Below, one piece after another: positions 33,253-64,000 of a DNA stretch of 64,000 bases. A program made the position numbers and the translations under genes. Numbering within the stretch: the stretch's first letter is position 1; each line of letters opens with the position of its first letter. The notes under the pieces were generated by a model, which saw only the letters and a program-made list of their open reading frames with translations, was not told the DNA's origin and searched no databases. Source of the DNA: a virus; IMG/VR virus record IMGVR_UViG_3300032053_000003, positions 30,392-94,391 of that record. The stretch is one strand, 5' to 3'.

Positions 33253-33531
33253 ATGTCAAAGGCCAAAAGTTTGATTAGTGTCCTGGAGGTAATACAGGGG
33301 AAAAAAGAGTGGGAAGGGACCACTGATAAAGGACAGGAGGTATCTTACGGGCAGAGAGATAATGGTATGTTCTATGCCCAGCTGAAGGATGATGAGGGTA
33401 ATATTTCGTCTACTATAGGGCAGGTACCCAAAGATATATGGAGCTGGATGTATAACCAGGGGATAAGAAAGATTTCGTGGTCTGATGGAAGAAAAGGTAC
33501 CATCACAGCACTTGGGGGAATTAATATATGA
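33253..33531 (+). CDS. MSKA-tag family small protein (MSKAKSLISVLEV...)
   Basis: ATG at 33253 with GAGGTGA SD; ORF-track start 33247 is a GTG. Confidence 0.5.
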   Translation: MSKAKSLISVLEVIQGKKEWEGTTDKGQEVSYGQRDNGMFYAQLKDDEGNISSTIGQVPKDIWSWMYNQGIRKISWSDGRKGTITALGGINI

Positions 33532-33815
33532 ACTCAAAAGCATCCAAATTCATAACTTTGTTTGAAATGCTGGAGGCACTTGGGTTGGATATGCTCAAGG
33601 CAGACCTGGCTGGTAATCTGAAGAGAGTTGGTTTTTCTCCTGAGGAGGTACAGAAGATCGTTGCTGAGGCTCCTGCTTTTATTGCAGGTGAGGAGGAATG
33701 GACAGAGTTTCTTAAAAAGGTAGGGTTTGAGTGGGGCCTGTCTCGTACCAAAATGCAGACAGATAAGATGAAGAAGCTTTCTTACTTTATGGCTAGGCTT
33801 AAACATCAAGTATGA
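33528..33815 (+). CDS. MSKA-tag family small protein (MNSKASKFITLFEMLE...)
   Basis: 95-aa ORF, 4-nt overlap. Confidence 0.5.
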   Translation: MNSKASKFITLFEMLEALGLDMLKADLAGNLKRVGFSPEEVQKIVAEAPAFIAGEEEWTEFLKKVGFEWGLSRTKMQTDKMKKLSYFMARLKHQV

Positions 33816-34255
33816 GTAGAGCTAAGGCATTCTTACATTTTCTTGAGGGGTATACAATTACTGTAGCCCTTCATAACCCTGGATCTCCTGATCAAAAAGA
33901 ATATTATGTAAACACACATATTTTTAATTTTGAACTTTGGGATGTTCCTTCTGAAGATCCTATTGTTAAAGGCAATAGAAAGGTAACCAGCTATATTGGT
34001 CTGTTCAACAATATAGCTGTTATTAATAAAAAAGACATTCGTAAGTACAACTCAACAAAGCAACGAATCAGTATTGAACGAAGTACAGCAGAGAAGATTT
34101 ATATACCTGACAGTGTTTGGGTGAGGCTCAAGATAACCAATCCTAGAAAAGATCAAGTGTTACTCCTTCAGTGTCTCGACATCCTTTATAAGCAGTATAA
34201 GGTGAGGATCTTTGGGATGGAGGATTCTGCCAACATCATCAAGTTCTGGGATTGA
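33812..34255 (+). CDS. MSKA-tag family protein (MSRAKAFLHFLEG...)
   Basis: 147-aa ORF. Confidence 0.5.
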   Translation: MSRAKAFLHFLEGYTITVALHNPGSPDQKEYYVNTHIFNFELWDVPSEDPIVKGNRKVTSYIGLFNNIAVINKKDIRKYNSTKQRISIERSTAEKIYIPDSVWVRLKITNPRKDQVLLLQCLDILYKQYKVRIFGMEDSANIIKFWD

Positions 34256-34298
34256 TCCGTAGCACATTCCACAGGTTTTAATACAGGAGAAGACCACA

Positions 34299-35759
34299 AT
34301 GTCTAAGTTTATTCCAGTATCTGGACCTTTAACCACTACAAGCCCTACTATCGATTCTCTTGATAATGTGAGGGTTAATGGTGTTCCAGGATATTACCCT
34401 GCTCTACTTGAAGGTGATGCTATCTTCGTTATTACTCCTGATGAAAGAACTTTCACCTATCGGGTAGAAATTAGATCCCCCAAGCCACCTGAAGATGTTC
34501 CTAATGTAATTTACCCTAAGTATTCCTCTGGTAATACTCCATATACTGGCAATATTTGTTTTATTCTTGCTGGTACTTCGGGTGGTACAGGCTCTTCTGG
34601 AACGAGTGGTTCATCTGGAATGGGTACATCAGGTTCTTCGGGCACCTCATTTTCTGGAATTACATCAGGGACTAGTGGTAGCTCAGGGGAGGGTGCAGAT
34701 GGAACTTCTGGTACCTCTGGCAATGGGTCTTCAGGGACTTCTGGGTCTTCAGGATCAAGGGGATCTAGTGGCACTAGTGGATCGTCTGGTATTGGCTCTT
34801 CTGGTACTTCTGGCTCTTCTGGTCTTTCGGGAATAGATGGTTATGATGGTACATCTGGCACCAGTGGCTCAAAAGGTGATGTAGGGTCCAGTGGAACCAG
34901 TGGGTCTTCAGGTTCAAGTGGTTCAAGGGGCACCTCAGGCACTAGTGGTTTAAGCGGTTCCTCAGGCACCAGTGGTACAGGATCTTCGGGGACTAGTGGT
35001 ACAGGATCTTCGGGGACATCAGGATTAAGTGGTTCTTCAGGGACTTCAAGTGTTGGCTCCTCTGGTACATCAGGTAATAGTGGGTCTTCTGGCACCAGTG
35101 GTTCAAGAGGCACTAGTGGGTCTTCAGGAACATCTGGATTAGGGTCTTCAGGAACCAGTGGCTTTGGTACTTCTGGTACGTCAGGCTTTGGAACTTCAGG
35201 TACATCAGGGTCTGGGACTTCAGGAACCTCTGGATCAGGTACCAGTGGAACCTCTGGAGTCAATGGTACTTCTGGGACAAGTAGTACTGGCTCTTCAGGA
35301 ACTAGTGGTTTAAGTGGGTCAAGTGGAACATCTGGTTTTGGTTCATCTGGTACATCAGGTCTCTCACCTCTTAATTATTATAATATTGACTCCACTACTG
35401 GTTATGAAACTCAGGTTTGCGCCACAGGTTCAGGGGTTACAATAAGTAAAGTAGGAAGTCTTTACACTTGGAGTATACCTTCAGGGGTACGTCTCATTTC
35501 TTGTAGCATAAGAGTTCCTGGAAGTTCACTCACTAGTGGTCAGATAATAATGGACTACTCTACTTTGGGGACTATGACCTGGACTAACAGGTTACTGGTA
35601 GGACCCATAAAGGCTTGGAGAGAGGACTCTGGTGCTCAGGTTACTATAACAGTCCAAGATCCAGATATTGAGCTGAATAGATGGTACCTTAGTGGAATGA
35701 GTGTCACTACTACATCATATGATTTGCTCATTTATTTCCATCAGAGAGTAACCTCATAA
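34299..35759 (+). CDS. Ser/Thr-rich Gly-X-Y (collagen-like) repeat fibre protein with C-terminal globular domain
   Basis: about 270 residues of GSS/GTS triplets (GTSGSSGTSGS...) then a non-repetitive C-terminal domain; AGGAGA SD. Confidence 0.7.
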   Translation: MSKFIPVSGPLTTTSPTIDSLDNVRVNGVPGYYPALLEGDAIFVITPDERTFTYRVEIRSPKPPEDVPNVIYPKYSSGNTPYTGNICFILAGTSGGTGSSGTSGSSGMGTSGSSGTSFSGITSGTSGSSGEGADGTSGTSGNGSSGTSGSSGSRGSSGTSGSSGIGSSGTSGSSGLSGIDGYDGTSGTSGSKGDVGSSGTSGSSGSSGSRGTSGTSGLSGSSGTSGTGSSGTSGTGSSGTSGLSGSSGTSSVGSSGTSGNSGSSGTSGSRGTSGSSGTSGLGSSGTSGFGTSGTSGFGTSGTSGSGTSGTSGSGTSGTSGVNGTSGTSSTGSSGTSGLSGSSGTSGFGSSGTSGLSPLNYYNIDSTTGYETQVCATGSGVTISKVGSLYTWSIPSGVRLISCSIRVPGSSLTSGQIIMDYSTLGTMTWTNRLLVGPIKAWREDSGAQVTITVQDPDIELNRWYLSGMSVTTTSYDLLIYFHQRVTS

Positions 35760-35771
35760 GGGGGATATGGC

Positions 35772-38700
35772 ATGTCATTAGCATTTGCTGCCAGGTTAGT
35801 AATAAATAATGTCGTAGACCTGGGGTCCAATATTTATGAAATAACAGGTAGGGTTTACGATTTTTCTATTTCTGGATATCTTGCTTCAGATGTTCAACTT
35901 GGGGATGTTATAATAGATGAGAATTCAGAGACTGGTGTAGTTAATAGGTGGAAGATTACTAATATAGTTTTAGCCAGTATTCGTAATCTTGTTTGTCATG
36001 TCGTATGGGACGATGAAGGTATAGAAGACCCAGCTGGTCCTCAGATTTGCCCAGCTGCTATTTGTAGTACATCTATTAATGTAAAGCTGGCTGAAGTACC
36101 TACTAGTACGTATTCCTTGCTTAGTGAGACCATCCTAACCAGAATTAATAATATCAATAATAGAGTCTTTATTGATCCTGCTATTACAGCAGGAACTAGT
36201 GGGTCCAGTGGTACATCTGGAGAGGGAGGAGGAACCAGTGGTTCTGGGTCGTCCTCTGGGACTAGTGGGATTTCTGGAGCCGATGGCTCCAGTGGTACTA
36301 GTGGTATTGGTCTTGATGGGTCTTCAGGTACGAGTGGAGCCGATGGGTCAAGTGGAACTAGTGGAGCCGATGGGTCAAGTGGAACCAGTGGAGCCGATGG
36401 AGTTGATGGGTCTTCAGGAACCAGTGGTATTGGTCTTGATGGTACATCAGGAACAAGTGGTGATTGGAGAAATGGGGTATATAACGAAATAATATCTGCT
36501 GATTCTGATGATTGTTATGTTACTCCAAATGATTCTGCAATTGATATAGGTCCTAGCCTAGTGGCTATGGGGAAGGGGGAGTTTAGTTTAGGTGCTGGTT
36601 TCAGATGGAATGGTTTGAATATACCGCAAGGTTCTCTTATTACAACTGCTTATGTGTCTTTAACCTCTGCTGATGATATTTCTAATGAAGACTGTATTAT
36701 TCAAATAAAAGGTGAAGCATCTGATAATGCAATTACTTTTTCTACCTATGAAGATTATGCTGCTCGATCTTTAACTGCAGCATCAGTAGCTTTTATTTTT
36801 CCTCCATCTACAGGAGATGTTGTTTATACTACTCCTGAATTAAAAACAATTATTCAAGAGATTGTGAATAGATCTAGTTGGCAAGTAGGGAATTCTATTG
36901 TTTTGTTTTTTGATGATAATGGTTCAACAGCATATGCACAACGAAATGTGTGTGATTTTGGGGCAAATCCTACAAAAGCTGCTAAACTTTATTTGCAATG
37001 GGACTCTTCTAATGGGCCTCAAGGATTACCTGGTGTTGATGGCACCTCAGGTTCAAGTGGGTCTTCAGGTACCAGTGGAGCCGATGGAGCTGATGGGTCA
37101 AGTGGAACCAGTGGGATCGATGGAGCTGATGGGTCTTCGGGAACCAGTGGTATTGGTCTTGATGGGTCTTCAGGAACCAGTGGAGTTGATGGAGCCGATG
37201 GGTCAAGTGGTACATCAGGTTTTGGGTCTTCAGGGACCAGTGGTATTGGTCTTGATGGGTCTTCAGGTACGAGTGGAGCCGATGGCTCCAGTGGGACCAG
37301 TGGTATTGGTCTTGATGGGTCTTCAGGTACGAGTGGAGCCGATGGGTCTTCAGGTACGAGTGGAGCCGATGGGTCAAGTGGAACTAGTGGAGCCGATGGG
37401 TCAAGTGGGACTTCAGGATCTTCAGGTACTTCAGGAGTAGATGCTCAGGCTACTAATTCTGTCTATGTTGATAGGGCTAGGGGTGACACATACACTCCTA
37501 CAGGAAGTGTAACCAAACCTTTTAAGACCCTCCAGGCTGCATTTGATTATATCGGACAGCCAACATTACCAGCTGACTTTAATGATGCTGCTAAATTCGG
37601 TTATAATGTTTATGTAGCTCCTGGGATATATACTGAGACACTAACTATTCCAGCTCGTCCTTCCATTAATGTATTTGTTGATGGTGTAAAAATAGTAGGT
37701 AATGTCACTTGGAATTTTGATGGCACTACGTTAACAGGTGCTTTAACACATCCAGAATTAGCTTTTATTGGTGATAATTTCCGTAATGCCTACAATACAG
37801 ATGGGCATCCTTTGACATGTACTATTGTAGGAAACCTTACAATAACACAGATTGCTGGTAGTTCAGGGAGTGGTGCTAGAGGACCCATTCTTATGCTTCG
37901 TGGTGCAGGTGTTGTTGGTAACATTACTTATAATACTAGTGGTACAGCAACAGGTTATAAATCTTTTACACAAATGCGTGATAGTATCTATACTGGTACT
38001 TTATCTACTGTGGGAGCAGGAGTTTCTAATTTACTGTACATTAGCAATTGTGATACCTCATCTTCCTATGCTGTAGGAGCCATTTCTGGAAATGTTTCTT
38101 TATATGTCCTTAGGAATGTACGGTTAGTTGGTACAGTAGTTTCTACTTCTAATAATGGTGGTAGGTGGTTTAATGTAACTTTTGGTGCTGTTGCTCATGA
38201 TTTTACAAATTGTTCTGGTACATTTAGTTGTGATGCCAATTCATATTCTAGTTTTTATGCTAATGTAACCAATAAGGGAGCAGGGGTATTCACGCTGATA
38301 GATGAAGCTAAAGGTGTGAAGAATGATTCAAATGTAACTGGTGTTTCTGTTAAAGATGCATTGAATAATCTGTTAGCTTTGGTAGGTACAAGTGGAACTT
38401 CAGGTACCTCTGGTTCCAGAGGTGTTGATGGATCAAGTGGGACTTCAGGGGCTGGGTTACCTGGAACTTCAGGTACCAGTGGAGCTGATGGGTCAAGTGG
38501 AACCAGTGGAGCCGATGGAGCTGATGGGTCTTCGGGAACCAGTGGGATCGATGGAGCTGATGGGTCTTCGGGAACCAGTGGTATTGGTCTTGATGGGTCT
38601 TCAGGAACCAGTGGAGTTGATGGAGCCGATGGAGCTGATGGGTCTTCGGGAACCAGTGGTATTGGTCTTGATGGGTCTTCAGGAACCAGTGGTATTGGTC

Positions 38701-40511
38701 TTGATGGGTCTTCAGGAACCAGTGGTATTGGTCTTGATGGGTCTTCAGGTACGAGTGGTATTGGTCTTGATGGGTCTTCAGGTACGAGTGGTATTGGTCT
38801 TGATGGGTCTTCAGGTACGAGTGGTATTGGTCTTGATGGGTCTTCAGGTACGAGTGGTATTGGTCTTGATGGGTCTTCAGGAACCAGTGGAGCTGATGGA
38901 GCCGATGGGTCTTCAGGAACCAGTGGAGCTGATGGGTCTTCAGGAACCAGTGGATTTGGAACTTCTGGTACGTCAGGAATTTCAGGCTCCAGTGGCACCT
39001 CAGCTACTTCTGGAGGAGGGGCAGGGGATGGTACTATTCTTCTTGGAGAACTTCCTTCAGGACAGATCTATGATGGTTTGATAACCCTTACGGAGACTGA
39101 TCAGGTGAATGAATCTATCAATTGGATTAATGAGATGCTTATTCTGATCTCCCCTGCAAAGCCTGAGATGCTCACAGGGGATGCTCTTGTTCTTACTGGT
39201 ACTGCTAAATATAGTGCTAAGGTGCCTTCTGGTCTTGTTGCAGCTTGGTATCTTGGTGGTGTGTCAGCTGGGGATACCATCACTGATTACGTTACAGACA
39301 ATACATTCCGTCTGACAACACCATCAACTTCAACAGAGTTTTATAACGGGATGTATACAGCTCCTGGTGGGACTTTGAATCTGTATGCAGGTGCCTCTAT
39401 TATCGATACCATCTCTACTGCAACAGCTGGCTCTTCTACGATGTTGACAGTATCTGATGTTGCAACTTACAACTCTATCTGGAGCAAAGCTAATGCTTAT
39501 GCAGATATCACTCAGACTGCTGAGGGCTATCTGTATTACAATTTTAATCACTCACTTGCTGGTGTAACAAACAATCTTGTAGTCAGGTATGATGATGTTC
39601 ATTCCACTCCTTCATTCTCATCAGCTCTTTCCATTGCTGAGAATACACCAGTCTGGAAGTATTTGTCAGGCATTCAGTATTATGGTCAGGGAACTACTCT
39701 AAATATTTCTTATACAGCTGCTGCTGGTATATTTACAAAATGTTATCATCCAACAGCAGTGGCAGTTATTTCCCAGAATGCTGTTGCCTTTGCAACCTTC
39801 AACTACAATCCTGCATCAATACCTGCTTATAACGATAACTGGATAGTGACTGGTTACACAGTGACATTGAGTGTGGCAAATAAGTCTTCTAATTCACCTA
39901 CTATTTCAGTAACCTTACAGAAGCCCACAGGTACCCAGGTTGTCTCTACTGCAAGCCTTGCTAAGAAACTTTGTACTTATGGTAACTATTCCACAACAAC
40001 TATAGAGTATTTCTTTGATGAGGCTTACAGGCTTGAGATAGGTACTGACACTGCTTGGACTTCATCAGCTACTTTGATAGATGACAATGCTCAGGTTCGT
40101 AATGGCTTTTTGCAGTGGCCTGATTCAGGGGATTACCCTACTGGGTTCTCAGGTGATCAGGAGTACCAGAGAAAGTTTACAAAAGTATCAGCATCCACTG
40201 GTACTTTAACCTTCTCAGGTATTACTTATTCTCAGATTTCTGCTTACGGTACTGGGGACCTCAATATTCTCCTTTATCTTGATACTGATGCCATATGGTT
40301 TGATCTTGGTCAGCTTGTTGGTTTTGGTGGGAATGGTTCTACACGAGCTTTGGCTATAGGTGCTCAGGGTTCAGGTTCAGGTGGACTTGTTAATTGGTCA
40401 ATAGGTACTTACAGTACAGGACCTTCTGGTTCAGGAAACTTCGGTAAATATAGGCTTGTCATTATCTTTAGGAACACCAACAGAACAATTACCCAGATAG
40501 TGTCTGCATAA
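35772..40511 (+). CDS. giant fibre/tailspike protein (1579 aa): collagen-like GXY blocks + right-handed beta-helix (pectate-lyase-fold-like) domain + C-terminal domains
   Basis: Multiple GSSGTSG[AI]DG blocks. The segment KPFKTLQAAFDYIGQPT...YNVYVAPGIYTETLTIPARPSINVFVDGVKIVGNV matches the N-terminal cap of pectin-lyase-fold depolymerases. Confidence 0.7.
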   Translation: MSLAFAARLVINNVVDLGSNIYEITGRVYDFSISGYLASDVQLGDVIIDENSETGVVNRWKITNIVLASIRNLVCHVVWDDEGIEDPAGPQICPAAICSTSINVKLAEVPTSTYSLLSETILTRINNINNRVFIDPAITAGTSGSSGTSGEGGGTSGSGSSSGTSGISGADGSSGTSGIGLDGSSGTSGADGSSGTSGADGSSGTSGADGVDGSSGTSGIGLDGTSGTSGDWRNGVYNEIISADSDDCYVTPNDSAIDIGPSLVAMGKGEFSLGAGFRWNGLNIPQGSLITTAYVSLTSADDISNEDCIIQIKGEASDNAITFSTYEDYAARSLTAASVAFIFPPSTGDVVYTTPELKTIIQEIVNRSSWQVGNSIVLFFDDNGSTAYAQRNVCDFGANPTKAAKLYLQWDSSNGPQGLPGVDGTSGSSGSSGTSGADGADGSSGTSGIDGADGSSGTSGIGLDGSSGTSGVDGADGSSGTSGFGSSGTSGIGLDGSSGTSGADGSSGTSGIGLDGSSGTSGADGSSGTSGADGSSGTSGADGSSGTSGSSGTSGVDAQATNSVYVDRARGDTYTPTGSVTKPFKTLQAAFDYIGQPTLPADFNDAAKFGYNVYVAPGIYTETLTIPARPSINVFVDGVKIVGNVTWNFDGTTLTGALTHPELAFIGDNFRNAYNTDGHPLTCTIVGNLTITQIAGSSGSGARGPILMLRGAGVVGNITYNTSGTATGYKSFTQMRDSIYTGTLSTVGAGVSNLLYISNCDTSSSYAVGAISGNVSLYVLRNVRLVGTVVSTSNNGGRWFNVTFGAVAHDFTNCSGTFSCDANSYSSFYANVTNKGAGVFTLIDEAKGVKNDSNVTGVSVKDALNNLLALVGTSGTSGTSGSRGVDGSSGTSGAGLPGTSGTSGADGSSGTSGADGADGSSGTSGIDGADGSSGTSGIGLDGSSGTSGVDGADGADGSSGTSGIGLDGSSGTSGIGLDGSSGTSGIGLDGSSGTSGIGLDGSSGTSGIGLDGSSGTSGIGLDGSSGTSGIGLDGSSGTSGADGADGSSGTSGADGSSGTSGFGTSGTSGISGSSGTSATSGGGAGDGTILLGELPSGQIYDGLITLTETDQVNESINWINEMLILISPAKPEMLTGDALVLTGTAKYSAKVPSGLVAAWYLGGVSAGDTITDYVTDNTFRLTTPSTSTEFYNGMYTAPGGTLNLYAGASIIDTISTATAGSSTMLTVSDVATYNSIWSKANAYADITQTAEGYLYYNFNHSLAGVTNNLVVRYDDVHSTPSFSSALSIAENTPVWKYLSGIQYYGQGTTLNISYTAAAGIFTKCYHPTAVAVISQNAVAFATFNYNPASIPAYNDNWIVTGYTVTLSVANKSSNSPTISVTLQKPTGTQVVSTASLAKKLCTYGNYSTTTIEYFFDEAYRLEIGTDTAWTSSATLIDDNAQVRNGFLQWPDSGDYPTGFSGDQEYQRKFTKVSASTGTLTFSGITYSQISAYGTGDLNILLYLDTDAIWFDLGQLVGFGGNGSTRALAIGAQGSGSGGLVNWSIGTYSTGPSGSGNFGKYRLVIIFRNTNRTITQIVSA
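38658..38888 (+). repeat. perfect 33-bp x 7 coding tandem repeat (GIGLDGSSGTS G units)
   Basis: GGTATTGGTCTTGATGGGTCTTCAGG(A/T)AC(C/G)AGT repeated 7 times head to tail. Confidence 0.9.
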
Positions 40512-40512
40512 T

Positions 40513-40845
40513 ATGAGTAAGGCATACCAACTTCTTTTTGAAATATTGAACCCTCACTACCATCTTCGTTTACGAGAGGGGATAGAGGTTAGGAAGGTTC
40601 TTAAATCTACTGATAATGGTAGTTGGGTAGAGAAGGAAGAGATCTGGGGTCTTAATGGTAATACAGATGATGACACCCCAATGATTACTGCATACACTCC
40701 TTCTGGTGATTATCTCGGTGATCCTGATTTTGCTAAAATGTTAGTTAAGAAAGGGATCACTCAGTTTGAGAATACTGAGCCAGATCACTGTGTTTGCTCC
40801 ATAGGTTTTAATCCTGAGAAAAGAATGGAGTGGGTGGAGTCATAG
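40513..40845 (+). CDS. MSKA-tag family protein (MSKAYQLLFEILNP...)
   Basis: 110-aa ORF starting 1 nt after the fibre stop. Confidence 0.5.
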   Translation: MSKAYQLLFEILNPHYHLRLREGIEVRKVLKSTDNGSWVEKEEIWGLNGNTDDDTPMITAYTPSGDYLGDPDFAKMLVKKGITQFENTEPDHCVCSIGFNPEKRMEWVES

Positions 40846-40886
40846 GGCTATATTTTCTTTTGGTATAGGATCAAAAGTTAAAAAAG

Positions 40887-41273
40887 GTGACTGTGGCTAC
40901 ACTCCTGAAAAAGGTGAGTGGGAAGCAAAAACCATTGAAGATGCCAAACTTATGGCTACAGAGTTTGCAAAAGGAGTGTCGTGATATGAGTAAAGCTATT
41001 GGTCTTCTTATGTTGCTTGAGGATGCATCTATTGTAGATAAGTACAAAGACTCCTTAGCCAAACTTAATTCACCCAAAAGAAAAGAGATTATTAAGGCTG
41101 CTTTTGCCAAGGGTGAGAAGTTTGCTGTGAAGCAGGGCTTGATGAAGATGAACAAAGAAGAGCCACTGGACCCTAAAGAGTATAATGCTCTTCTGGACTA
41201 TATGAGTGACCTTGAAAGAAAACCAACTGCTGTTAAGTCAAAGAGTTTTGCAAGTCGTTTCCTGGCCTTTTAA
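40887..41273 (+). CDS. hypothetical protein
   Basis: 128-aa ORF. Confidence 0.45.
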   Translation: MTVATLLKKVSGKQKPLKMPNLWLQSLQKECRDMSKAIGLLMLLEDASIVDKYKDSLAKLNSPKRKEIIKAAFAKGEKFAVKQGLMKMNKEEPLDPKEYNALLDYMSDLERKPTAVKSKSFASRFLAF

Positions 41274-41293
41274 CTAGATCCTGTGAGGCAATA

Positions 41294-41494
41294 ATGAATC
41301 GTTCAAAAAGACTCTTGGTTCTTCTGCGTGAAGAGAACGAAGATAAAGATGGGTGGGTAGGAGTGGATCTTGATTCAACCTTAGCCTTTTATGATGAGTG
41401 GAAAGGTAATGACTATATAGGGAAGCCAATTCCTGAGATGGTCAAGAAAGTTAAGAGTCTTTTGGATCAGGGTAAGCAAGTTAAGATCATATGA
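41294..41494 (+). CDS. hypothetical protein
   Basis: 66-aa ORF. Confidence 0.4.
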   Translation: MNRSKRLLVLLREENEDKDGWVGVDLDSTLAFYDEWKGNDYIGKPIPEMVKKVKSLLDQGKQVKII

Positions 41495-41682
41495 CTGCAC
41501 GAGTTCATCCTGACAATGAAGATGTAGAAGGTATCAGGGAACTTATTCAGAAATGGTGTGAAGAACATCTTGGTCAGGTTCTCCCTGTTACCCATGAGAA
41601 AGACCACAAAATGATTGAACTTTGGGATGACCGATGCAGACAAGTTATTAAAAATACTGGCAGGTTCATTGATGAGGATTAA
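41491..41682 (+). CDS. hypothetical protein
   Basis: 63-aa ORF. Confidence 0.4.
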   Translation: MTARVHPDNEDVEGIRELIQKWCEEHLGQVLPVTHEKDHKMIELWDDRCRQVIKNTGRFIDED

Positions 41683-41720
41683 TCTCTATAGAATTTACCC
41701 TCATATGGAGGATTTTTTAA

Positions 41721-44870: not shown

Positions 44871-44955
44871 AATTACCTTACTCTTGGATGGTCTAGGGGT
44901 AAGTCACTTAATACCAAACGCATAATTGGTATCTATCAAATAACGAGGTGAAATA

Positions 44956-46413: not shown

Positions 46414-46434
46414 GTAGTCAACATTTGAAGTACA

Positions 46435-46482
46435 GTGGTGGAGTCTTCGGACTCCACCACATATTCGTCTTTATTCATTCTT
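46435..46482 (+). terminator. rho-independent terminator
   Basis: 11-bp perfect stem GTGGTGGAGTC-TTCG-GACTCCACCAC followed by T-rich tract ATATTCGTCTTTATTCATTCTT. Confidence 0.6.
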
Positions 46483-46502
46483 AAACTTCAGAGGAGTACA
46501 TA

Positions 46503-54252: not shown

Positions 54253-57200
54253 GTGTGCATGCCTGATAAATTTGAAAATATATTGGCTGTTTGTAGCTTT
54301 CTGGGCACTTCTGGTTATAACTATCATGCTCGTGGGTTTTTTACAGCACTCAATAAGCTTCTCCCTGTAGCTATCAAGAATTGGTCCTATGATGATAATC
54401 CTTATTATCTGACCAATGAGCAAAAGGTTATGATGGCTGCTGCCTCTGGGAAGAGCTTTTCCTTCGGTGAGTGCATTACTGTATGTCTTCACGAATCCAA
54501 TCATGAAGATTGGTATAAACATGCTTACAAGTCACCTAAGATAGCCTTTAATGTATGGGAATCTACCAGACAGACTGAGAGGTTTTTTCAGAAGCTTCTT
54601 GAGTTTGACCAGATCTGGGTCCCCAGTGAATGGCAGAAGAAGTATACGGTTGAACAGGGTGCCCCTGCTGATAAGGTATTTGTTATACCTGAAGGAATAG
54701 ATACAGATCGTTTCAAGGTTACAGAGCCTACTATTAACTACCATTTTGCAGATAAGGATAAGTTTACTTTTACTATTGCAGGTAGGTGGGAATATCGAAA
54801 AGCTACAACAGAGATGATCCGGACATTCAATGAGACTTTTAGAGATGTAGATGATGTTGAGTTACTTATCCTGGTAGATAATCCTTTTGATAGACAGAAA
54901 ATGTCTACAGAGGACAAACTATTACAGAATGGCTTAGGTAATAAAAAGATCAAAATCCTTCATAAACTCTCACAAGAGGATTATGACCAGCTGATATGTG
55001 AAACAAATTGTTTCTTATCTTGTAGTAGGGCTGAGGGCTGGAACCTTCCATTATGTTTTCCAGTAGGTACAGAGATTATTACTCCTAGTGGTTTTAAGCT
55101 TATAGAGACTATTAAACAGGGTGATGATGTATTTTCTCATAAGGGATTATCTAGAAAAGTTAAAGGTGTAATGACCAGGGAGTACAGAGGTGATTTAATT
55201 AATGTTGATATTTATAATAATATAAATACTCTCTCTGCTACTCCTGAACATCCTGTGAGGGTTATTAAACGAAATAGGATGTCTACTATGTATGGTGGTT
55301 CCTTATTGGAGTATATTCAAAAGAGAAAGTTGGAACCTGAGTGGATTCCAATAAAAGAGATAGAAAAAGGGGATCTTCTTGTTCAGGCTATTCCTTGTAC
55401 TTTATTAAAGAATAATATTACTATAGATTTATTGAATTATCTACCAAATATGCAGTTTGATTCTGAATATATTTGGAGCAAATATAGTAATAATCCAAAG
55501 GAAAAGGGGAGTAATGTTAAAAAAGTTAATAGATTTGTTAAGTTAAAGGATCTAACCTTTTTGATAGGTTGGTATCTTGCTGAAGGTAATTCTTATAAAA
55601 CTAGGTTGGACTTTACAGTTAACTCTATTACAGAACAAGGAGTTGCAGCTAGGATTAAGGATGATTTTAATAGGTTGTTTGGTGTTGACTCTGTTTTTAA
55701 GGAAGACTCTGATAAAGATGCATTGCACATAAGGATCAGCTCCTCAATATTGGCTACTTTTTTTAAGCTTTATTGTGGGGGCAAGCAAAGTTTCAGGTTT
55801 ATCCCTAATGAAGTTTTATATGGTAATATTGACATCCTACAAGAAGTCATATCAAATTTATTCTTAGGTGATGGGTGTCATCAGCAGGAGAGGGATAGGA
55901 ATCTACTTACTACATGTTCCGAAGTGCTTGCTAATCAGGTTGTAATAGCATTGCATAGATTAGGTTACAAGGCAGGAACTCAGAAAGTAAAAAGAAATAG
56001 AAAATGTAAGCATTATGTAGTTAGTTTTGCTTATGATTCTTTTAATGGTACACATAGTAACAAACAGTATGTTTTTGAGAAAGAGGTATGGCATTTTGTT
56101 AAAAAAGTAACAAAGACTTCTTATGAGGGCATTGTATACAATTTTGAAGTAGAGAAAGATAATTCGTATCTTACTCATACAGCTTCTGTGCATAATTGTG
56201 AGTTCATGGCTTGTGGAGTCCCTGCTATATGCTCAAACTGGTCAGGTCATCTGGAATTTGCTAAGGATTATGCCAGTCTTGTTAATACAGATTATCTAAA
56301 AGCTGCATGGTCAGAGTTTGGTGACTTTCCTGGAGAGTATGCTGAGCCTGATTTTAAGCATCTTGGTCAGTTGATGTTGGCACACTATGCTGATCATTCA
56401 AACTTTACTACTAGAGCAGTAGAAGGGGCTGAGTACCTAAAGGGCTTTACTTGGGAGAATGCAGCTAAAATAGCTCTGAGTACCATGAAGCCCTTGATGA
56501 TAAGGACTACACCTATAAACATTGTAGAGCCTAAAGGTGAGAAACCTCCTGTTAAGGTTGAGGTTACTGAGCCTATTGTAATCAAAAAGTCTGAGATAAA
56601 GGCTGAGGTCAGTAAGAAGGTGAAAAGTAAGGACATCATCGTTATTGACTGCTTTCCTAATACTGAAAATAAGTTAAAAAAGCTTGTTGACACTATTTAT
56701 TTTGTAAAGAAGTTTGAAAAACCAATAGCACTGGTATCTCATCTTCCTATCCCAGAAAGTGTACAGGTCCTTGTAGATTACTACATCTTTGATGTTGACA
56801 ATACCCTGCCTGATTACAGGTTGCCTATATACTATACCTTCAGTGATTTAAAGTTGTTAGGCAGACTTGATCGTCCTTATCATAGTCTCCCTATTGTGAA
56901 GTCCCTTCAGAATATCTGTAAGATGTTCTCTAATTTTGAGAGGATACACTTCATTGAATACGATATAAACATTGATTTTGAGAAGCACCTTTCAAATGTA
57001 GCAACCCATAAGGACAAGGATCTGGTTAGCTACTTCTATGAGGGCACTGGTATCTATACCAATATCATGACCTTTAAGCCTTCTCTGATGCTTGAGGTTC
57101 TCACAACCCAGACTCTTAATTGGGAAGACTACAAGAAGATGGCTTCTCCTGTGATACTGGAGAGAGATCTCATCTTTGAAAATTGGATGTTCAAGATCCT

Positions 57201-58713
57201 TACCAGTGCTGGAAAGACAGATAACATGGTCGTTCTTAAGTCTGATACTATCAATATGAAGTTAGATGAGTTCAAGGAAATGCCTGTAGTCAACTTTGTG
57301 GTTTGTGAGACAGAGGATGACAAGAATGTCCTGTTTGTAATCCATAGGAATATCGATCCTAAAGAGTTCATATTTGACCCAGCAGGGTTAAAGCTTATCA
57401 GTAATGGTGCTGATCCCTACTCATATGTCATTTTTGACAGAGATATAACAAATGTGACAGTTCACGGTATGGGTAAGACTTTTGATGTCGATGTTGTTAA
57501 TGAATACAAGGGTGAATTCCTCTTCTTTGATGGGTGTCCTGCTGCTGATATCAAATGTAAGAAGTCTGAGTTCTGGAGGGGAATAAGCTCCAAGCACAAT
57601 ATTCAATACAGAAATTTTTTCATTGATGGTGCTTTTATGGAGCTTCTGGGTCCTACTACTGATGATAAGTACAAAGTGACTTTTACTGATCGTCACTCTG
57701 GTCAGATAGTTCATTCAACAGAGATTGGGATCAACTGTTGGACAAAGACCAATAGGAAGTACTACACAGATTGGAACGTAAAGGTCACTTCTAATGATGA
57801 AGAGCTTTACAACCAGGACATATCCTACTTTCAGAGAAGGGTTTTTGTTGTTCTTGACTCTAAGGCTATGGGAGATACCCTAGCTTGGTTCCCCATGGTG
57901 GAAGAATTCAGAAAGAAGCATAATGCTCATGTAATATGTTCCTCCTTCTGGAATAAGTTCTTCAAGTCCAAGTACCCTGAGATAGATTTCATAGAGCCAG
58001 GGCAGTCGGTTCCAGATATCTTTGCTCAGTTCAATGTGGGTTGTTATGATAATGATCTCAATAGGAATAGGTTCAATTGGAGGATCACCCCTCTTCAGAA
58101 GGTGGCTGCTGATATTCTGGGGATTACAAGATATGTGGAGGTTCTTCCTAATGTAGCCTATAAAGTTCTGGATAGACCAATAAAAGAGAAGTATGTGGCT
58201 ATCTCAGAACACTCGACTTTTATGTGTAAATACTGGTTGAATTCTGGAGGGTGGTCTACAGTAATAAACTACCTCAATGATCTGGGTTATGTTGTGGCTG
58301 CTATATCCAAAGAAACTACCCAGCTTCCTGGTATAGTAGACCTCACAGGAAAGCCTATTGAGGAGACCATCAGTAACATCCATCACTCTTCCATGTTCAT
58401 TGGCATGTCCTCTGGTCCTTCATGGCTCTCTTGGGCTCTCAAGAAGCCCCTGGTACTTATCTCAGGATATTCTAAAGAGTGGGCTGAGATGGATTTCAAG
58501 AATCCTCTTGTGAGCAGGGTTATTAACAAGGATGTCTGTCATGGATGCTTTAATGATCCTTCTCTTCCTCTTGAACGTGGTAGTTGGAGATGGTGTCCTC
58601 GTGGAAGGGATTTTGAGTGCAGTAAGATGATCTCCCCTGAGATGGTGATGGAGGGTATCAATAAGTTCTTTGGTATGAATAAGAATAGTGCAGGGTACGG
58701 AAGGTTATTATGA
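54253..58713 (+). CDS. multi-domain glycosyltransferase (1486 aa): N-terminal GT4-like domain interrupted by an intein, central domain of unknown function, C-terminal GT9 (heptosyltransferase-like) domain
   Basis: The two extein halves, AEGWNLPL and CEFMACGVPAICS, join to give the GT4 motif (EGFGLPVLEAMACGVPVIAS-like). C-terminus VVLDSKAMGDTLAWFPMVEEFRKKHNAHVICSS ... GMSSGPSWLSWALKKPLVLISG matches GT9 N- and C-terminal blocks. Confidence 0.7.
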   Translation: MCMPDKFENILAVCSFLGTSGYNYHARGFFTALNKLLPVAIKNWSYDDNPYYLTNEQKVMMAAASGKSFSFGECITVCLHESNHEDWYKHAYKSPKIAFNVWESTRQTERFFQKLLEFDQIWVPSEWQKKYTVEQGAPADKVFVIPEGIDTDRFKVTEPTINYHFADKDKFTFTIAGRWEYRKATTEMIRTFNETFRDVDDVELLILVDNPFDRQKMSTEDKLLQNGLGNKKIKILHKLSQEDYDQLICETNCFLSCSRAEGWNLPLCFPVGTEIITPSGFKLIETIKQGDDVFSHKGLSRKVKGVMTREYRGDLINVDIYNNINTLSATPEHPVRVIKRNRMSTMYGGSLLEYIQKRKLEPEWIPIKEIEKGDLLVQAIPCTLLKNNITIDLLNYLPNMQFDSEYIWSKYSNNPKEKGSNVKKVNRFVKLKDLTFLIGWYLAEGNSYKTRLDFTVNSITEQGVAARIKDDFNRLFGVDSVFKEDSDKDALHIRISSSILATFFKLYCGGKQSFRFIPNEVLYGNIDILQEVISNLFLGDGCHQQERDRNLLTTCSEVLANQVVIALHRLGYKAGTQKVKRNRKCKHYVVSFAYDSFNGTHSNKQYVFEKEVWHFVKKVTKTSYEGIVYNFEVEKDNSYLTHTASVHNCEFMACGVPAICSNWSGHLEFAKDYASLVNTDYLKAAWSEFGDFPGEYAEPDFKHLGQLMLAHYADHSNFTTRAVEGAEYLKGFTWENAAKIALSTMKPLMIRTTPINIVEPKGEKPPVKVEVTEPIVIKKSEIKAEVSKKVKSKDIIVIDCFPNTENKLKKLVDTIYFVKKFEKPIALVSHLPIPESVQVLVDYYIFDVDNTLPDYRLPIYYTFSDLKLLGRLDRPYHSLPIVKSLQNICKMFSNFERIHFIEYDINIDFEKHLSNVATHKDKDLVSYFYEGTGIYTNIMTFKPSLMLEVLTTQTLNWEDYKKMASPVILERDLIFENWMFKILTSAGKTDNMVVLKSDTINMKLDEFKEMPVVNFVVCETEDDKNVLFVIHRNIDPKEFIFDPAGLKLISNGADPYSYVIFDRDITNVTVHGMGKTFDVDVVNEYKGEFLFFDGCPAADIKCKKSEFWRGISSKHNIQYRNFFIDGAFMELLGPTTDDKYKVTFTDRHSGQIVHSTEIGINCWTKTNRKYYTDWNVKVTSNDEELYNQDISYFQRRVFVVLDSKAMGDTLAWFPMVEEFRKKHNAHVICSSFWNKFFKSKYPEIDFIEPGQSVPDIFAQFNVGCYDNDLNRNRFNWRITPLQKVAADILGITRYVEVLPNVAYKVLDRPIKEKYVAISEHSTFMCKYWLNSGGWSTVINYLNDLGYVVAAISKETTQLPGIVDLTGKPIEETISNIHHSSMFIGMSSGPSWLSWALKKPLVLISGYSKEWAEMDFKNPLVSRVINKDVCHGCFNDPSLPLERGSWRWCPRGRDFECSKMISPEMVMEGINKFFGMNKNSAGYGRLL
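55054..56196 (+). other. intein (381 aa) with LAGLIDADG homing-endonuclease domain, inserted in the GT4 catalytic motif
   Basis: Begins at Cys1 (CFPVGTEIITPSGFKLIETIKQGDDVF, Hint block A). LAGLIDADG blocks LIGWYLAEGNS and LFLGDGC. Ends ...ASVHN followed by +1 Cys at 56197. Confidence 0.75.
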
Positions 58714-60573: not shown

Positions 60574-60786
60574 ATGGAGAAGGCAAAATCGTTGTTGAAA
60601 AAGATGGGTAAAAAGATCCTAACTGAGGGGGACCTGAAAGTACTAGCAAAACAGTTTATCACAGAAAATCCTTACCCAAAGGATGAACAGCTCCATGATT
60701 TCTGTGATAAACAAGGCATTTCCCCTCATGATCTTGAGACAGCAGTTTATGCAGTGCTGTCTGATTATATCACAGGTAAGGTGTAA
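60574..60786 (+). CDS. MSKA-tag-like small protein (MEKAKSLLKKMGKK...)
   Basis: 70-aa ORF. Confidence 0.45.
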   Translation: MEKAKSLLKKMGKKILTEGDLKVLAKQFITENPYPKDEQLHDFCDKQGISPHDLETAVYAVLSDYITGKV

Positions 60787-61242: not shown

Positions 61243-61446
61243 ATGGGGAGTTATAAATCGCTCATATGGAGAAAACCAATGAGGATTATAAGAGAGATAG
61301 TGAGATTCTTAAAAGCTCTCAACAGATGGTTTCCACCTCCACCAATTCCCAGACCTCCAGAGAGACGGATAGGTCACAGGAGATATTGGAGTGATGAAGA
61401 ATGGGGTAAGTTCAAAGAGGATACTCTTAGGAAGCATTCAAAGTAG
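61243..61446 (+). CDS. hypothetical protein
   Basis: 67-aa ORF. Confidence 0.35.
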   Translation: MGSYKSLIWRKPMRIIREIVRFLKALNRWFPPPPIPRPPERRIGHRRYWSDEEWGKFKEDTLRKHSK

Positions 61447-61460
61447 TCGAGGAGAACACT

Positions 61461-62384
61461 ATGGCAAAAGGAAACTGGCAGGGTACTGATGCAGATCTGG
61501 AAACTTCTCTTTTTGAGTATAACTTCGTAGCCAAACAGAGAGCTGAAAAGGATCATCCTGATGAGTGGTTTGTTCTCTACAAGATAAGTAATAATGCTTT
61601 TGGTACAGGTCATATTCGTGAAAGTGAACTGGATGACTTGATCAATGGCAAAGAATGGATGAAAGAGGAAGATATTAAAAAGACCCTTTCTTATGTAGGT
61701 ATGACAAAGGAAGAGTGGCTCAAAGAGAATTTCATCAATAAGCTCAGTGATCTCCTTGGTTATTGGGGATATGAAGAGATAATGGGTAGTGACTATAATC
61801 CTCTGGATAAGAAAGGAGCCCTCAAGATGATGGGTATAGAAAGTGAAGAAAAAGAGAATGAGTCCAAAGCCAGGAGACTTATTGAGGAACTTAAATCCAC
61901 AGAGGGTCCTGAACAGCCTGGTTCCAGTGATATTATCGATGATAAGCTGAATAAAGAAATTACCATCCTTCAGGGTGTTCTTGGAGGTAAGAAGTTAGGT
62001 ACAAATGCTACTTTTCAGACTGCCAATGGTGCCATGGTGAACATCCTTGCTTTGGGTGCCAAAAATGATGAGGTTGCTACAGAACCTAAAACGGATGTTG
62101 CTGTGCCTGGTGGTGAAGTTGCTAAGAAGTCTACAACGGCTGCTGATGTGATCAGTGCTGCTGGTGCTATAGGTGCTACTGAGAGTTACAAGGTTTCCAA
62201 GAAGGAGTTTGATATAGCTCAGAAAATGAAGGCTAAAGGTTACAAATATGCATTGAAGGTACCTGGTGATGAACGGTTACTGACCTTCAAAAGTAGTAAG
62301 GATATGAGTTCCTATCTCTGGGATGAGAAAGGTCTTAAACCTGAGTGGAATGGGAACATTGACGATCTAATTGTAGAAGACTGA
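61461..62384 (+). CDS. hypothetical protein
   Basis: 307-aa ORF. Confidence 0.5.
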   Translation: MAKGNWQGTDADLETSLFEYNFVAKQRAEKDHPDEWFVLYKISNNAFGTGHIRESELDDLINGKEWMKEEDIKKTLSYVGMTKEEWLKENFINKLSDLLGYWGYEEIMGSDYNPLDKKGALKMMGIESEEKENESKARRLIEELKSTEGPEQPGSSDIIDDKLNKEITILQGVLGGKKLGTNATFQTANGAMVNILALGAKNDEVATEPKTDVAVPGGEVAKKSTTAADVISAAGAIGATESYKVSKKEFDIAQKMKAKGYKYALKVPGDERLLTFKSSKDMSSYLWDEKGLKPEWNGNIDDLIVED

Positions 62385-62394
62385 GGAGTAGGAT

Positions 62395-62607
62395 ATGTCG
62401 AAAGCTGCTGAAGTTCTCAAAATGATATCTGAGGCTGCTGGGTTTAGAGGTGTGATTACGAATGACATCTCTCACGCCTATATTCCTTCTCAGATTTTTG
62501 ATACTCGTGAGGAAGCAGCAGCTCAGGCTAAGAAAAATGCTGCAAGCAGGGGCAAGCATTGGAGTGCTTTTGTAGTGGATCTGGATGGGAAATCTTATGA
62601 CATCTAA
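62395..62607 (+). CDS. MSKA-tag family small protein (MSKAAEVLKMISEA...)
   Basis: 70-aa ORF; GGAG SD. Confidence 0.45.
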   Translation: MSKAAEVLKMISEAAGFRGVITNDISHAYIPSQIFDTREEAAAQAKKNAASRGKHWSAFVVDLDGKSYDI

Positions 62608-62830
62608 GGCCCAGTACATAATCCACCTGGTTGAGTGTGATTGTGATTGTGAGGAGGGTGACAAGTGCCCTAAGTGTGGCAAGACCTTTGAAGACAATAC
62701 CCCTCGTGTGATGCAGGGTGCTCAAATGGATATACTTCCAGCAGATGACGATGATGAGGACACTGCAAGACGTTTCAGTAGTGATCAGATTCCTCTCAGA
62801 AATGTGAAGAGTAACAGGTTGGGGTGGTAG
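62585..62830 (+). CDS. hypothetical zinc-ribbon protein (CDCDCEEGDKCPKCG)
   Basis: 81-aa ORF. Confidence 0.4.
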   Translation: MGNLMTSKAQYIIHLVECDCDCEEGDKCPKCGKTFEDNTPRVMQGAQMDILPADDDDEDTARRFSSDQIPLRNVKSNRLGW

Positions 62831-62838
62831 GAGAGTAT

Positions 62839-63225
62839 ATGGGAAAAGCCAGATCACTAATCAATCTTATGGAACAGGAAGATCATTTGCTAAGCTCAGG
62901 TTTGAAGGGTTTCAGCAAAGAGAAGGCTAAGAAAATGGTTAATAAGCTTCTTAGTAGTTCTTCCAAGGGTTTTTTCCGTGATGATGCTTGGCAAGCAGTC
63001 AACCATGTCTGGAAGGAACTGGAAAAAGCCGACATTGAAGCAGTGATCACAGATGCCAAGTATAACGGTAGTATGCCTCCCTCCTCAAAGATGTGGAAGT
63101 TTGAGATCTACTTCACTAATAACAATGGTAGGAGGACTATATTATACGGTGTACTAACGGCAAGTGGGGCTGGAAGTGTAGAAAATCCTCTGGATAAATA
63201 TGATATTATAACCTACGTGGGATAA
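62839..63225 (+). CDS. MSKA-tag family protein (MGKARSLINLMEQ...)
   Basis: GGAGAG SD before ATG 62839; track start 62824. Confidence 0.5.
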   Translation: MGKARSLINLMEQEDHLLSSGLKGFSKEKAKKMVNKLLSSSSKGFFRDDAWQAVNHVWKELEKADIEAVITDAKYNGSMPPSSKMWKFEIYFTNNNGRRTILYGVLTASGAGSVENPLDKYDIITYVG

Positions 63226-63236
63226 AGGAGCTTGAT

Positions 63237-63509
63237 ATGTCAAAAGCCAGCAAGTTTATTAATGAAGCAGAGATGACTGAAGATCAGATCAAGAATGCTT
63301 TTGATCGGTTGAAGGAATCGGTTGCAAGGGATTTTGACAACCTGTTCAAGAAGGCATTGAGATCAGGTGCTCTCGATGTTGAAAGCTATGACAATCCTGT
63401 GGTGTTGGCAAAGGTTATCATGAAGGCTGCTTTGATCGATGAGGCAGATCAGTTTGCAGTTACTGATAAGATGAAGAAAGATGCTAAGAATCTCAGTCTC
63501 AGTCTCTAG
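63237..63509 (+). CDS. MSKA-tag family small protein (MSKASKFINEAEM...)
   Basis: 90-aa ORF; AAGGAG SD. Confidence 0.5.
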   Translation: MSKASKFINEAEMTEDQIKNAFDRLKESVARDFDNLFKKALRSGALDVESYDNPVVLAKVIMKAALIDEADQFAVTDKMKKDAKNLSLSL

Positions 63510-63534
63510 GAAGACTTATTAATAAGGAGCTTAG

Positions 63535-63795
63535 ATGTCAAAAGCCAGACAGTTTATTTCCTTAGTTGAAGCCGATGTTACTAAAGAAGGGCATAGTGTT
63601 AAGTACAAGCCTAATAAGGATCTAAGCAATCACGAGGCTGATGTTTTACACTATGCTGTTGACTCTTATAGCCATGTTCTCGATTCAGGAAGTTATAGCT
63701 ATAAGCAGTTTGCTAATGAGATCTCTCAGGTCTATGATGTTAAGGAACCAAGGAACAAAGCTGTTGTAGACCTGCTTAATAAAATTTCTTCTTAG
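63535..63795 (+). CDS. MSKA-tag family small protein (MSKARQFISLVEA...)
   Basis: 86-aa ORF; AAGGAG SD. Confidence 0.5.
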   Translation: MSKARQFISLVEADVTKEGHSVKYKPNKDLSNHEADVLHYAVDSYSHVLDSGSYSYKQFANEISQVYDVKEPRNKAVVDLLNKISS

Positions 63796-63803
63796 GAGGC
63801 ATT

Positions 63804-64000
63804 ATGTCAAAGGCTGGAAAATTCCTTCAGAATATAAATGAAGATACCAAGAAAGATCGGATGAATACTCAGATTGAGAGGCATGGTAATAACCTCAATA
63901 AGATCTTCAAAACAGATATGGACCCTGTAGCCTTGTCTAAGAAGCTTTTCAGTCTTGAGATCAAAATGAGAAAGGCTGCTATGGATTATAACAATGGGGA
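63804..64000 (+). CDS. MSKA-tag family protein (MSKAGKFLQNINE...), 3' end cut by window edge
   Basis: GGAGG SD; frame open to window end. Confidence 0.45.
   Translation, partial: MSKAGKFLQNINEDTKKDRMNTQIERHGNNLNKIFKTDMDPVALSKKLFSLEIKMRKAAMDYNNG

Follow-up and report, generated by a model that had tools for sequence, protein, structure and literature searches.

A short peptide at the N-terminus of at least 27 otherwise unrelated proteins from an uncultivated phage: a candidate capsid-targeting and processing signal

Proteins that phages inject into their hosts act ahead of phage gene expression and are prime candidates for counter-defence and host takeover. To our knowledge, outside T4, P1, N4 and a few giant phages, such proteins have been identified only through virion proteomics of cultured phages. 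In T4, they carry the capsid targeting sequence (CTS), a 10-residue N-terminal peptide, MKTYQEFIAE (PMC8442874), which is the sole common feature of diverse internal proteins, brings them to the scaffolding core and is cut off by the prohead protease gp21 (PMC3012670, PMC9026906, PMC12373910). The internal proteins that T-even phages carry are injected anti-restriction proteins that share only this CTS (PMC3012670, PMC12373910). Within the T4 peptide, residues 4 and 7 are the main determinants of targeting and residues 8 and 10 those of processing, and an Asp at position 10 blocks processing (PMC9026906). Here we describe a short N-terminal peptide, hereafter the tag, that recurs on small genes of an uncultivated phage; it was found in a stretch of 64,000 nucleotides (the window) of the IMG/VR virus record IMGVR_UViG_3300032053_000003, positions 30,392 to 94,391.

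Several other arrangements place proteins inside protein shells. The C-terminal targeting tail of the HK97 protease and the scaffold fusions of P22 are cases in which proteins are trapped in the capsid during assembly, and encapsulin peptides may stand at either terminus and are transferable, usually being C-terminal, rich in Gly, Ser and Leu, uncleaved and encoded beside the shell gene in a cellular genome. The encapsulin cargo-loading peptide is a short conserved peptide that serves diverse cargo and binds inside an HK97-fold shell (PMC8346489), and the Dar anti-restriction proteins of P1 are trapped in the capsid and injected to defeat restriction (PMC12810830). In phiKZ, 201phi2-1 and SPN3US (proteases gp175/gp245), dozens of proteins are packaged, many of them matured after a Glu in a short motif, and cleavage after Glu is common to the prohead proteases of T4, phiKZ and SPN3US (PMC9026906). 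Inner-body and ejection propeptides of giant phages are also treated in PMC5694885 and PMC10052503. Apart from the T4 CTS and the giant-phage propeptides, the literature surveyed describes no such tags.

The tag is real, and its occurrence is non-random. The initial annotation had listed 11 similar N-termini, and all were confirmed, each with a Shine-Dalgarno-like AGGAG located 6–10 nt upstream; two of them, at 40513 (Glu at position 10) and 60574 (without Glu at position 12), are weak members. Two further members were identified in the window, at 40986 (MSKAIGLLMLLED) and 62597 (MTSKAQYIIHLVE). Additionally, a 12,986-bp contig (L001), which overlaps the window end and extends the coverage by 7.9 kb to 71,887 bp in all, adds 14 members past the window end. 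The total comes to at least 27 tagged genes, of which the window contributes 13 and L001 a further 14, and from 60574 onward 21 of 28 consecutive called genes are tagged. The consensus, M-[S/T/G/N]-[K/R]-A-x-x-[F/L/V/I/M]-[I/L]-x-x-hydrophobic-E, spans approximately 12–13 residues and places hydrophobic positions 4, 7, 8 and 11 on one helix face, with Lys at 3 and 5. The regular expression [STGNE][KR][AS]xx[FLIVM][ILVF]x(2-3)[LIVMFAST]E, applied to six frames of the 71,887 bp, gave 22 matches, compared with a mean of 1.36 and a maximum of 5 in shuffled sequences, and a start codon directly precedes 21 of the 22. When only the N-termini of open reading frames (ORFs) were considered, 15 matched against 0.005 expected from shuffling the residues within each ORF. 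The matrix behind the motif scores given below was trained on the members themselves, and significance rests on the regular expression and the shuffles.

The tag was found in none of approximately 60 minus-strand genes at 1–27000. It is therefore not the product of a general N-terminal or initiation bias, the finding that the initial annotation had said would defeat its proposal. That annotation had also stated that the conservation extends to the DNA and had raised a recombination cassette boundary as an alternative. The first of these statements was not borne out, as the synonymous codons are scrambled and only a few neighbouring pairs are alike in DNA. Over 25 tags, Ser2 is written with all six codons (TCA 5, AGT 5, TCC 3, TCG 2, AGC 2, TCT 1), Ala4 with GCT (10), GCC (7) and GCA (7), and Glu12 with GAG (10) and GAA (8), while the hydrophobic positions vary among Leu, Phe, Ile, Val and Met codons. 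This scrambling indicates that selection on the tag acts on the peptide and not on the DNA, and it contradicts a cassette boundary as the primary cause. More generally, we consider a nucleic-acid-level element (cassette boundary, translation-initiation or regulatory RNA) barely credible, since the constraint lies on the peptide and 10–15 scrambled nucleotides are too short for efficient homologous recombination. What such an element would explain is the 87–92% DNA identity of some neighbouring tag pairs and an orphan 17-codon ORF, MSKAKEVLKALYETDR followed by its stop, which lies between two genes at L001:5863–5916 (approximately 760 bp past the window end) and whose DNA is 87% identical to the tag of the gene at L001:5326. 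This ORF looks like the remnant of a duplicated or recombined tagged gene and, together with the near-identical neighbouring tags, it suggests that recombination or duplication at tags seems to occur as a side effect. In the T-even phages, the CTS has been reported as a likely aid to the shuffling of the internal-protein genes (Repoila 1994, cited in PMC12373910).

The bodies behind the tag proved otherwise unrelated, as first described: an all-against-all blastp comparison from residue 16 to the end gave a best E-value of only 0.026. Sequence comparison and structure prediction both indicate a detachable module, predicted to be separate from the folded body; the modularity is supported by homologues that lack the tag or carry other tags and by the retention of the tag while genes turn over. 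For instance, the protein encoded at L001:10871–11233 begins with VVSKAGHFLSITEDVMK followed by its body, and from residue 20 it aligns (40% identity, E = 5e-24) with residues 4–102 of a Bacillus phage SIOphi protein of 105 aa. The SIOphi homologue has no tag and begins where the tag ends, so the tag is separate from the body. A tblastn search of 25 tagged proteins against deposited phages returned homologues for one protein only. The plus-strand gene at 62839..63225 joins the tag MGKARSLINLME to a widespread NTF2-like domain in a 128-aa protein; its body, residues ~20–127, matched 407 representative clusters (E <= 1e-3), every match beginning after the tag. The AlphaFold2 (AF2) model of this protein has a predicted local distance difference test (pLDDT) value of 92 overall, approximately 60 in the tag helix and above 95 in the NTF2-like core, and Foldseek matched NTF2-like folds weakly.

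Two other bodies match families at scores above the Pfam cutoffs. The minus-strand gene at 28484..29107 encodes a 207-aa protein with the tag MSKAKEMIDSME (encoded at 29072–29107) and a body resembling S-adenosylmethionine (SAM) lyases and DUF3293. Its match to S-AdoMet_lyase (PF23780) reached 37.3 bits against a cutoff of 28, and by this family match the product is a putative SAM-lyase-like enzyme. In the AF2 model, the tag forms a helix at residues 3–10 (pLDDT 60–68), followed by a loop at 11–16 and a confident core from residue 17. Foldseek placed 7OCK, the T3 SAMase, and 6ZM9, a phage SAM lyase, at the top, each as a weak match (E 0.014–0.03); the match to 7OCK (probability 0.98, E = 0.014, template-modelling score 0.35–0.46) provides weak fold support. 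Among approximately 280 homologues, the core is conserved from ESSLSRLW onward, preceded in each protein by a short N-terminal peptide of its own. The pattern M-x-x-[FYW]-x-x-hydrophobic-hydrophobic-x-E stands directly before the core in 50 of 117 homologues, as in MKQYKEFINE; judged by sequence, this is the layout of the T4 CTS.

The second of these bodies belongs to the weak member at 40513..40978 (plus strand), which begins MSKAYQLLFE and continues into a frameshifted body like Tad6, a Thoeris inhibitor family. The Pfam Tad6 match (PF25188) scored 48 bits against a cutoff of 27 and covers only positions 6–77 of the 145 in the profile. By tblastn with a 74%-identical orthologue (P0122), the frameshift was located near 40821–40826: the ORF stops at 40845 and the rest of the domain follows in the +1 frame to 40978. 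The orthologue retains MSKSYRLLFEVL; distant Tad6 homologues begin differently, and the tag peptide at 40513 overlaps the native N-terminal strand of the family. The same truncated 110-aa product was called in five independent assemblies, so the frameshift is no one-off assembly error, and the gene may be a pseudogene or may need programmed frameshifting. Directly after its frameshifted end starts the tagged gene at 40986..41273 (plus strand; MSKAIGLLMLLE, 95 aa), which was absent from the initial list; its true start lies inside a mechanical ORF, 40887–41273, which begins earlier only because it runs over the out-of-frame tail of the gene before it. For the other tagged proteins, no significant match was obtained in Pfam or PHROGs.

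Most bodies are thus orphans with unassigned folds, and adjacent near-duplicates occur (MNRSQQIISLSE beside MNRAQQIISLSE) in addition to the neighbouring tags that are similar in DNA. These observations would suit a helix that is itself the working part and not a sorting signal, in which case the bodies would vary within a fast-evolving family whose common helix binds a single host or phage target (for instance RNA polymerase, a protease or a defence protein). We judge this improbable. The bodies show no mutual similarity, at least three of them belong to independent widespread families that exist without the helix, and AF2 places the helix apart from complete domains; moreover, the helix sequence differs across phage lineages while the cargo domains are common to them.

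Comparison with related contigs bears on the same question. A metagenome scan with the 407-aa protein encoded at the end of L001 recovered two relatives (L017 and L018), whose anchor genes are 70–77% identical and which carry MTKA/MSKA tags on many small genes. The untagged genes at 67733, 68373 and 70430 (coordinates of window plus L001) are conserved and syntenic in both relatives, and the tagged genes between these anchors have no detectable homology to the tagged genes of the phage studied here. The comparison indicates that the tag is the stable element and that the cargo turns over between relatives. A tag-like helix stands at the start of the L018 orthologue of the 407-aa protein and is internal in the versions of this phage and of L017; this suggests that the internal tag-like peptides of the 407-aa protein arose by gene fusion. 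In L017 (Ga0247841_10016546), an IS605/TnpB-like ORF and a large basic ORF are inserted in the tagged cluster (6818–8032 and 108–1157).

Furthermore, other N-terminal peptides were found to recur on neighbouring genes of more distant contigs. Contig L019 (Ga0224495_10001569) encodes a T4 gp32-family protein (97.7 bits) together with NMNAT-Nudix and NadR-like genes, and at L019:5513–10100 it contains at least 12 adjacent Lys-rich small genes starting with MNYKQLLEKVLxE, MNNFKRLLE or similar. All of these tags end in [L/I/V]-x-E or L-L-E, and one of the tagged genes is homologous to the N-domain of the 407-aa protein. Tenacibaculum phage pT24 was considered as a possible relative of L019, and nothing relevant emerged. 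Among short homologues of the 62839 domain, x(4-6)-E-L-x-K-I-A-K-x-L is a frequent start, and the ELxKIAKxL helix was also observed on neighbouring genes: five in L030 (448–4280), two clear cases in L029 and two in L027. In L029 (Ga0172378_10008977), a 410-aa ADP-ribosyltransferase (Pfam ADPrib_exo_Tox, 49 bits) at 2028–3260 is tagged and lies beside tail-tube genes. In L031 (IMGVR_UViG_3300022555_001580), two adjacent genes at 10328–12266 share MKI[F/Y]xxxG[T/S]KERL[F/W]EMM and lie just after a 362-aa protein with a C-terminal homologue of the 62839 cargo domain; the pair is possibly another dialect or simply paralogues. Taken together, genome-specific N-terminal tags on diverse accessory proteins appear, from these sequences, to be a general phenomenon, with the same cargo domains behind different tags.

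The existence of such dialects also bears on a degradation tag, which the initial annotation had raised. Short N-terminal peptides in which a basic residue is followed by hydrophobic residues can be ClpX recognition signals, and the tag might be an N-terminal degron or timing signal, read by a host or phage AAA+ protease and restricting how long the tagged proteins last. A signal read by a host machine, however, ought not to switch dialect between phage lineages, the conserved terminal Glu and Ala4 are not traits of known N-degrons, and the window encodes no dedicated unfoldase or protease. We therefore give this explanation very little weight.

The end of the tag is specific for Glu. At position 12, 17 of 25 tags carry Glu and none carries Asp, although the two residues are equally common in the background; when position 13 is counted as well, Glu is present in 21 of 25. 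Three positions before this Glu (P3), the residue is L, I, V, M or F in 21 of 23 tags. Since a solvent-exposed helix end would not discriminate between Glu and Asp, a site for a Glu-specific protease fits, and, at the sequence level, the hydrophobic-x-Glu end matches the cleavage motif of T4-type prohead proteases. In addition, the tagged genes lie inside a block of virion genes, dispersed on one strand among those for tail fibres and other virion proteins.

On these grounds, namely the hydrophobic-x-Glu end, the position in the virion block and the tagged cluster of the gp32-family contig, we favour a capsid-targeting and processing signal like the T4 CTS, a proposal to which we assign an even chance of being correct and in which binding, cleavage, encapsidation and injection are steps that we infer. 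The identity of the cargo fits this proposal, as the SAM-lyase and Tad6 family matches lie above the Pfam cutoffs. The tag helix would dock a newly made protein onto the scaffolding core of the prohead, so that the protein would be trapped inside the shell; the prohead protease would then cut after the conserved Glu and release the mature protein within the capsid, from which it would be ejected into the host along with the DNA. The SAM-lyase-like enzyme, and possibly the Tad6-like protein, would in this way act against host defences before phage gene expression. The initial annotation had proposed a targeting or processing tag in several versions: the tag as an add-on on unrelated proteins stands, the capsid version is the best supported, and secretion found no support. 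For a secretion signal, the tag lacks a hydrophobic core, with a maximum of 2–3 consecutive hydrophobic residues and an acidic end, and thus falls short of the core of at least 10 hydrophobic residues after a basic N-region that was sought for Sec or Tat export.

A related idea is an amphipathic membrane-targeting helix, directed to the inner membrane or envelope. The hydrophobic face at positions 4, 7, 8 and 11, the Lys at 3 and 5 and the helix predicted by AF2 are in its favour. A purely physico-chemical signal would nevertheless not need the conserved Ser2-Lys3-Ala4, and the tag has only 12 residues, a net charge near zero, an acidic end and no hydrophobic core, which leaves this explanation with a slim chance. 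A genuine Sec-like signal, observed inside a tagged protein of L001, looks quite different. It is the internal Sec-like signal peptide (MSKTKKVLAAAVLAAFMMVGSGAAHA) of the 178-aa protein encoded at L001:10332–10868, a gene which, from its sequence, may be two fused genes or have an internal start.

A number of observations weigh against a capsid signal of the T4 type. Genes for a prohead protease, scaffold, portal or major capsid protein do not lie within the window or L001 (~72 kb covered of a 237-kb contig), and the relatives found in the metagenome scan with the 407-aa protein likewise include none with head genes. The T4 late promoter TATAAATA had 5 matches against 3.8 expected, which is no enrichment, and none of the T4 core genes is present in the 64-kb window, so the phage may not be T4-like. 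Scored with the tag matrix, the T4 CTS itself reaches -7.1; the two peptides have no sequence identity, and the tag exceeds the CTS by two residues. The mature tagged proteins have mixed isoelectric points (4.3–9.8) and are not uniformly basic like the T4 internal proteins. A short N-terminal helix or strand is native to both the SAM-lyase and Tad6 families, and their tags could be partly coincidental and not clean swaps. The MKxFKxxLNE N-terminus of a marine SAM-lyase homologue was not seen on its neighbours in the one Tara marine contig covered (L007), nor was it shared by the neighbours in an Alishewanella phage. Finally, two C-terminal and several internal tag-like peptides are not predicted by a purely N-terminal propeptide model.

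Some of these points would be accommodated if the tag docked its proteins onto another phage hub, such as a chaperone, the tail or baseplate (as crAss-like tail cargo), a replication compartment or another complex, with no need of cleavage. C-terminal and internal copies suit a position-independent peptide, the tagged genes lie among tail-fibre and not head genes, and the product of gene 40986 has a sub-threshold match (13.3 bits) to the crassvirus cargo protein 1 domain; modularity, dialects and co-evolution would fit equally well. On the other hand, the preference for Glu over Asp and the hydrophobic P3 are best explained by a site for a Glu-specific protease. No candidate hub was found, and the hallmarks of nucleus-forming phages are absent, the phage encoding a sigma-70 region 4 protein and not RNA polymerases of its own. 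We regard docking onto another hub as unlikely, but as the strongest of the alternatives.

The remaining tagged genes of the window are all on the plus strand and fall into two groups. The first comprises three overlapping genes, 33253..33531 (MSKAKSLISVLE, 92 aa), 33528..33815 (MNSKASKFITLFE, 95 aa) and 33812..34255 (MSRAKAFLHFLE, 147 aa), all with orphan bodies, the first of them without a Pfam or PHROG match. The second group comprises the weak member at 60574..60786 (MEKAKSLLKKMG, 70 aa, motif score 19.4) and the genes at 62395..62607 (MSKAAEVLKMISE, 70 aa), 62585..62830, 63237..63509 (MSKASKFINEAE, 90 aa), 63535..63795 (MSKARQFISLVE, 86 aa) and 63804..64000 (MSKAGKFLQNINE). The gene at 62585..62830, absent from the initial list, has a Cys-rich body and starts at 62585 or 62597, the former adding MGNL before MTSKAQYIIHLVE. 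The protein encoded at 63535 is identical on 6 metagenome contigs, and the last gene is cut by the window end and measures 137 aa in L001, where the 14 further tagged genes follow.

Tag-like peptides away from the N-terminus were observed in several proteins. One, LSKARRILEQMK, is encoded at 27907..27942 on the minus strand, at the C-terminus of a 196-aa protein (27904–28494), and a second C-terminal case, ESKAKKLISSLLD followed by the stop, belongs to L001:9141–9464 (motif score 22). Internal peptides were found in a 307-aa protein (61461–62384; ESKARRLIEELKS at 61860..61898, plus strand, score 13.7) and in the 428-aa protein that is the first of the plus-strand block (31654..32940, plus strand; ESKSESLLKLLSE at 32779–32817, plus strand). 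The N-terminus of the latter, MNYKLNKLLEILNLVEDD, resembles the tag dialect of L019, and the protein has no Pfam or PHROG match.

The window divides into two gene blocks. At 1–31,500, early-type genes lie on the minus strand and include those for RtcB, Mom-like, WGR-PARP and sigma-70 region 4 proteins; the plus-strand block starts at 31,654, and all later genes are on this strand. Besides the tagged small genes, the plus block includes genes for a C92 amidase, a methyltransferase, a Gp80-type fibre protein, five giant collagen-like fibre proteins and glycosyltransferases, one of which has an apparent intein. At 29157–31194 (minus strand), a WGR-PARP-type ADP-ribosyltransferase (398 aa) and the sigma-70 region 4 protein (262 aa) adjoin the tagged SAM-lyase-like gene, and these three genes stand at the divergent junction of the two blocks. 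Long collagen-like Gly-x-x repeats ('SGTSGSSG') characterise the five very large proteins at 34299–50879 (485–1579 aa), which match tail-fibre PHROGs; opposite the repeats the antisense frames are also open, which produces many spurious ORFs. At 41294–41682, two short ORFs (66 and 63 aa) with an ATGA overlap resemble two parts of a single HAD-type phosphatase (GVDLDSTL motif) broken by a change of frame, and neither half had a Pfam match. The 1486-aa glycosyltransferase at 54253–58713 has a GT4/GT1 N-terminal part and a GT9-like C-terminal part, with an apparent intein containing a LAGLIDADG endonuclease at approximately residues 268–648, for which the Pfam scores of Intein_splicing, Hint_2 and LAGLIDADG_3 were all below cutoff. 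A scan of 59.5–64 kb for sigma-70 promoters and terminators gave none above chance.

The phage is uncultivated, and a 237,444-bp contig carries a protein identical to one of the window. The same genes are present in several sediment and freshwater metagenome assemblies. Megablast of 60–64 kb against deposited phages found nothing similar at the DNA level, and the tblastn matches of a 440-aa early protein were all distant and widely distributed, the best (31%) being in a Tunturiibacter phage. Scans of IMG/VR with the 307-aa protein and a neighbouring 101-aa protein recovered no relatives.

If the tag is a capsid address, at least 27 proteins, most of them orphans, become candidate injected effectors, a set that in this 237-kb phage would be roughly ten times that of T4. 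The dialects on other contigs (MNYKQLLEKVLxE/MNNFKRLLE and x(4-6)-ELxKIAKxL, beside MSKAxxLIxxLE here) and the recurrent cargo behind different tags suggest that the principle is perhaps widespread and under-described; the literature surveyed reports it for the T-even phages only. We accordingly propose, tentatively and with slightly less than even confidence, that many uncultivated tailed phages load large, rapidly changing sets of effectors by means of short, genome-specific N-terminal address helices. The effectors would then include anti-defence enzymes, ADP-ribosyltransferases and NTF2-like proteins, and a tag found de novo from repeated N-termini would make the injected set readable from the genome. 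Furthermore, the short peptide might load foreign proteins into capsids, like the T4 CTS.

Among the known systems, encapsulin peptides differ from the tag in context, since no encapsulin gene or Gly/Ser/Leu C-terminal motif is present here and the surroundings are phage fibre genes. The Dar proteins of P1 have no common short tag and are loaded hierarchically, and the HK97 and P22 signals each serve one protein and not a cargo family. The giant-phage propeptides resemble the tag in its proposed role, in that many different packaged proteins are processed by a Glu-directed prohead protease; they are, however, long and without a shared consensus, whereas here a single 12-residue consensus stands at the extreme N-terminus. 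The T4 CTS, the closest of these systems, shares with the tag a short N-terminal peptide on unrelated, non-essential proteins, a hydrophobic pair at positions 7–8, a hydrophobic-x-Glu end, cargo from anti-defence families and hyperplastic loci with gene turnover between relatives. It differs in length (10 residues against 12–13), in sequence, with which the tag has no identity, in its uniformly basic cargo and in number, as at least 27 tagged genes are found here compared with 3 in T4 and approximately 10 across the T-even phages; this phage also differs from T4 in its lack of T4 core genes and late promoters in the 64 kb. The principle is thus the one known from the T-even phages, represented here by a different peptide on roughly ten times more genes, in a 237-kb uncultivated phage and with further dialects elsewhere.

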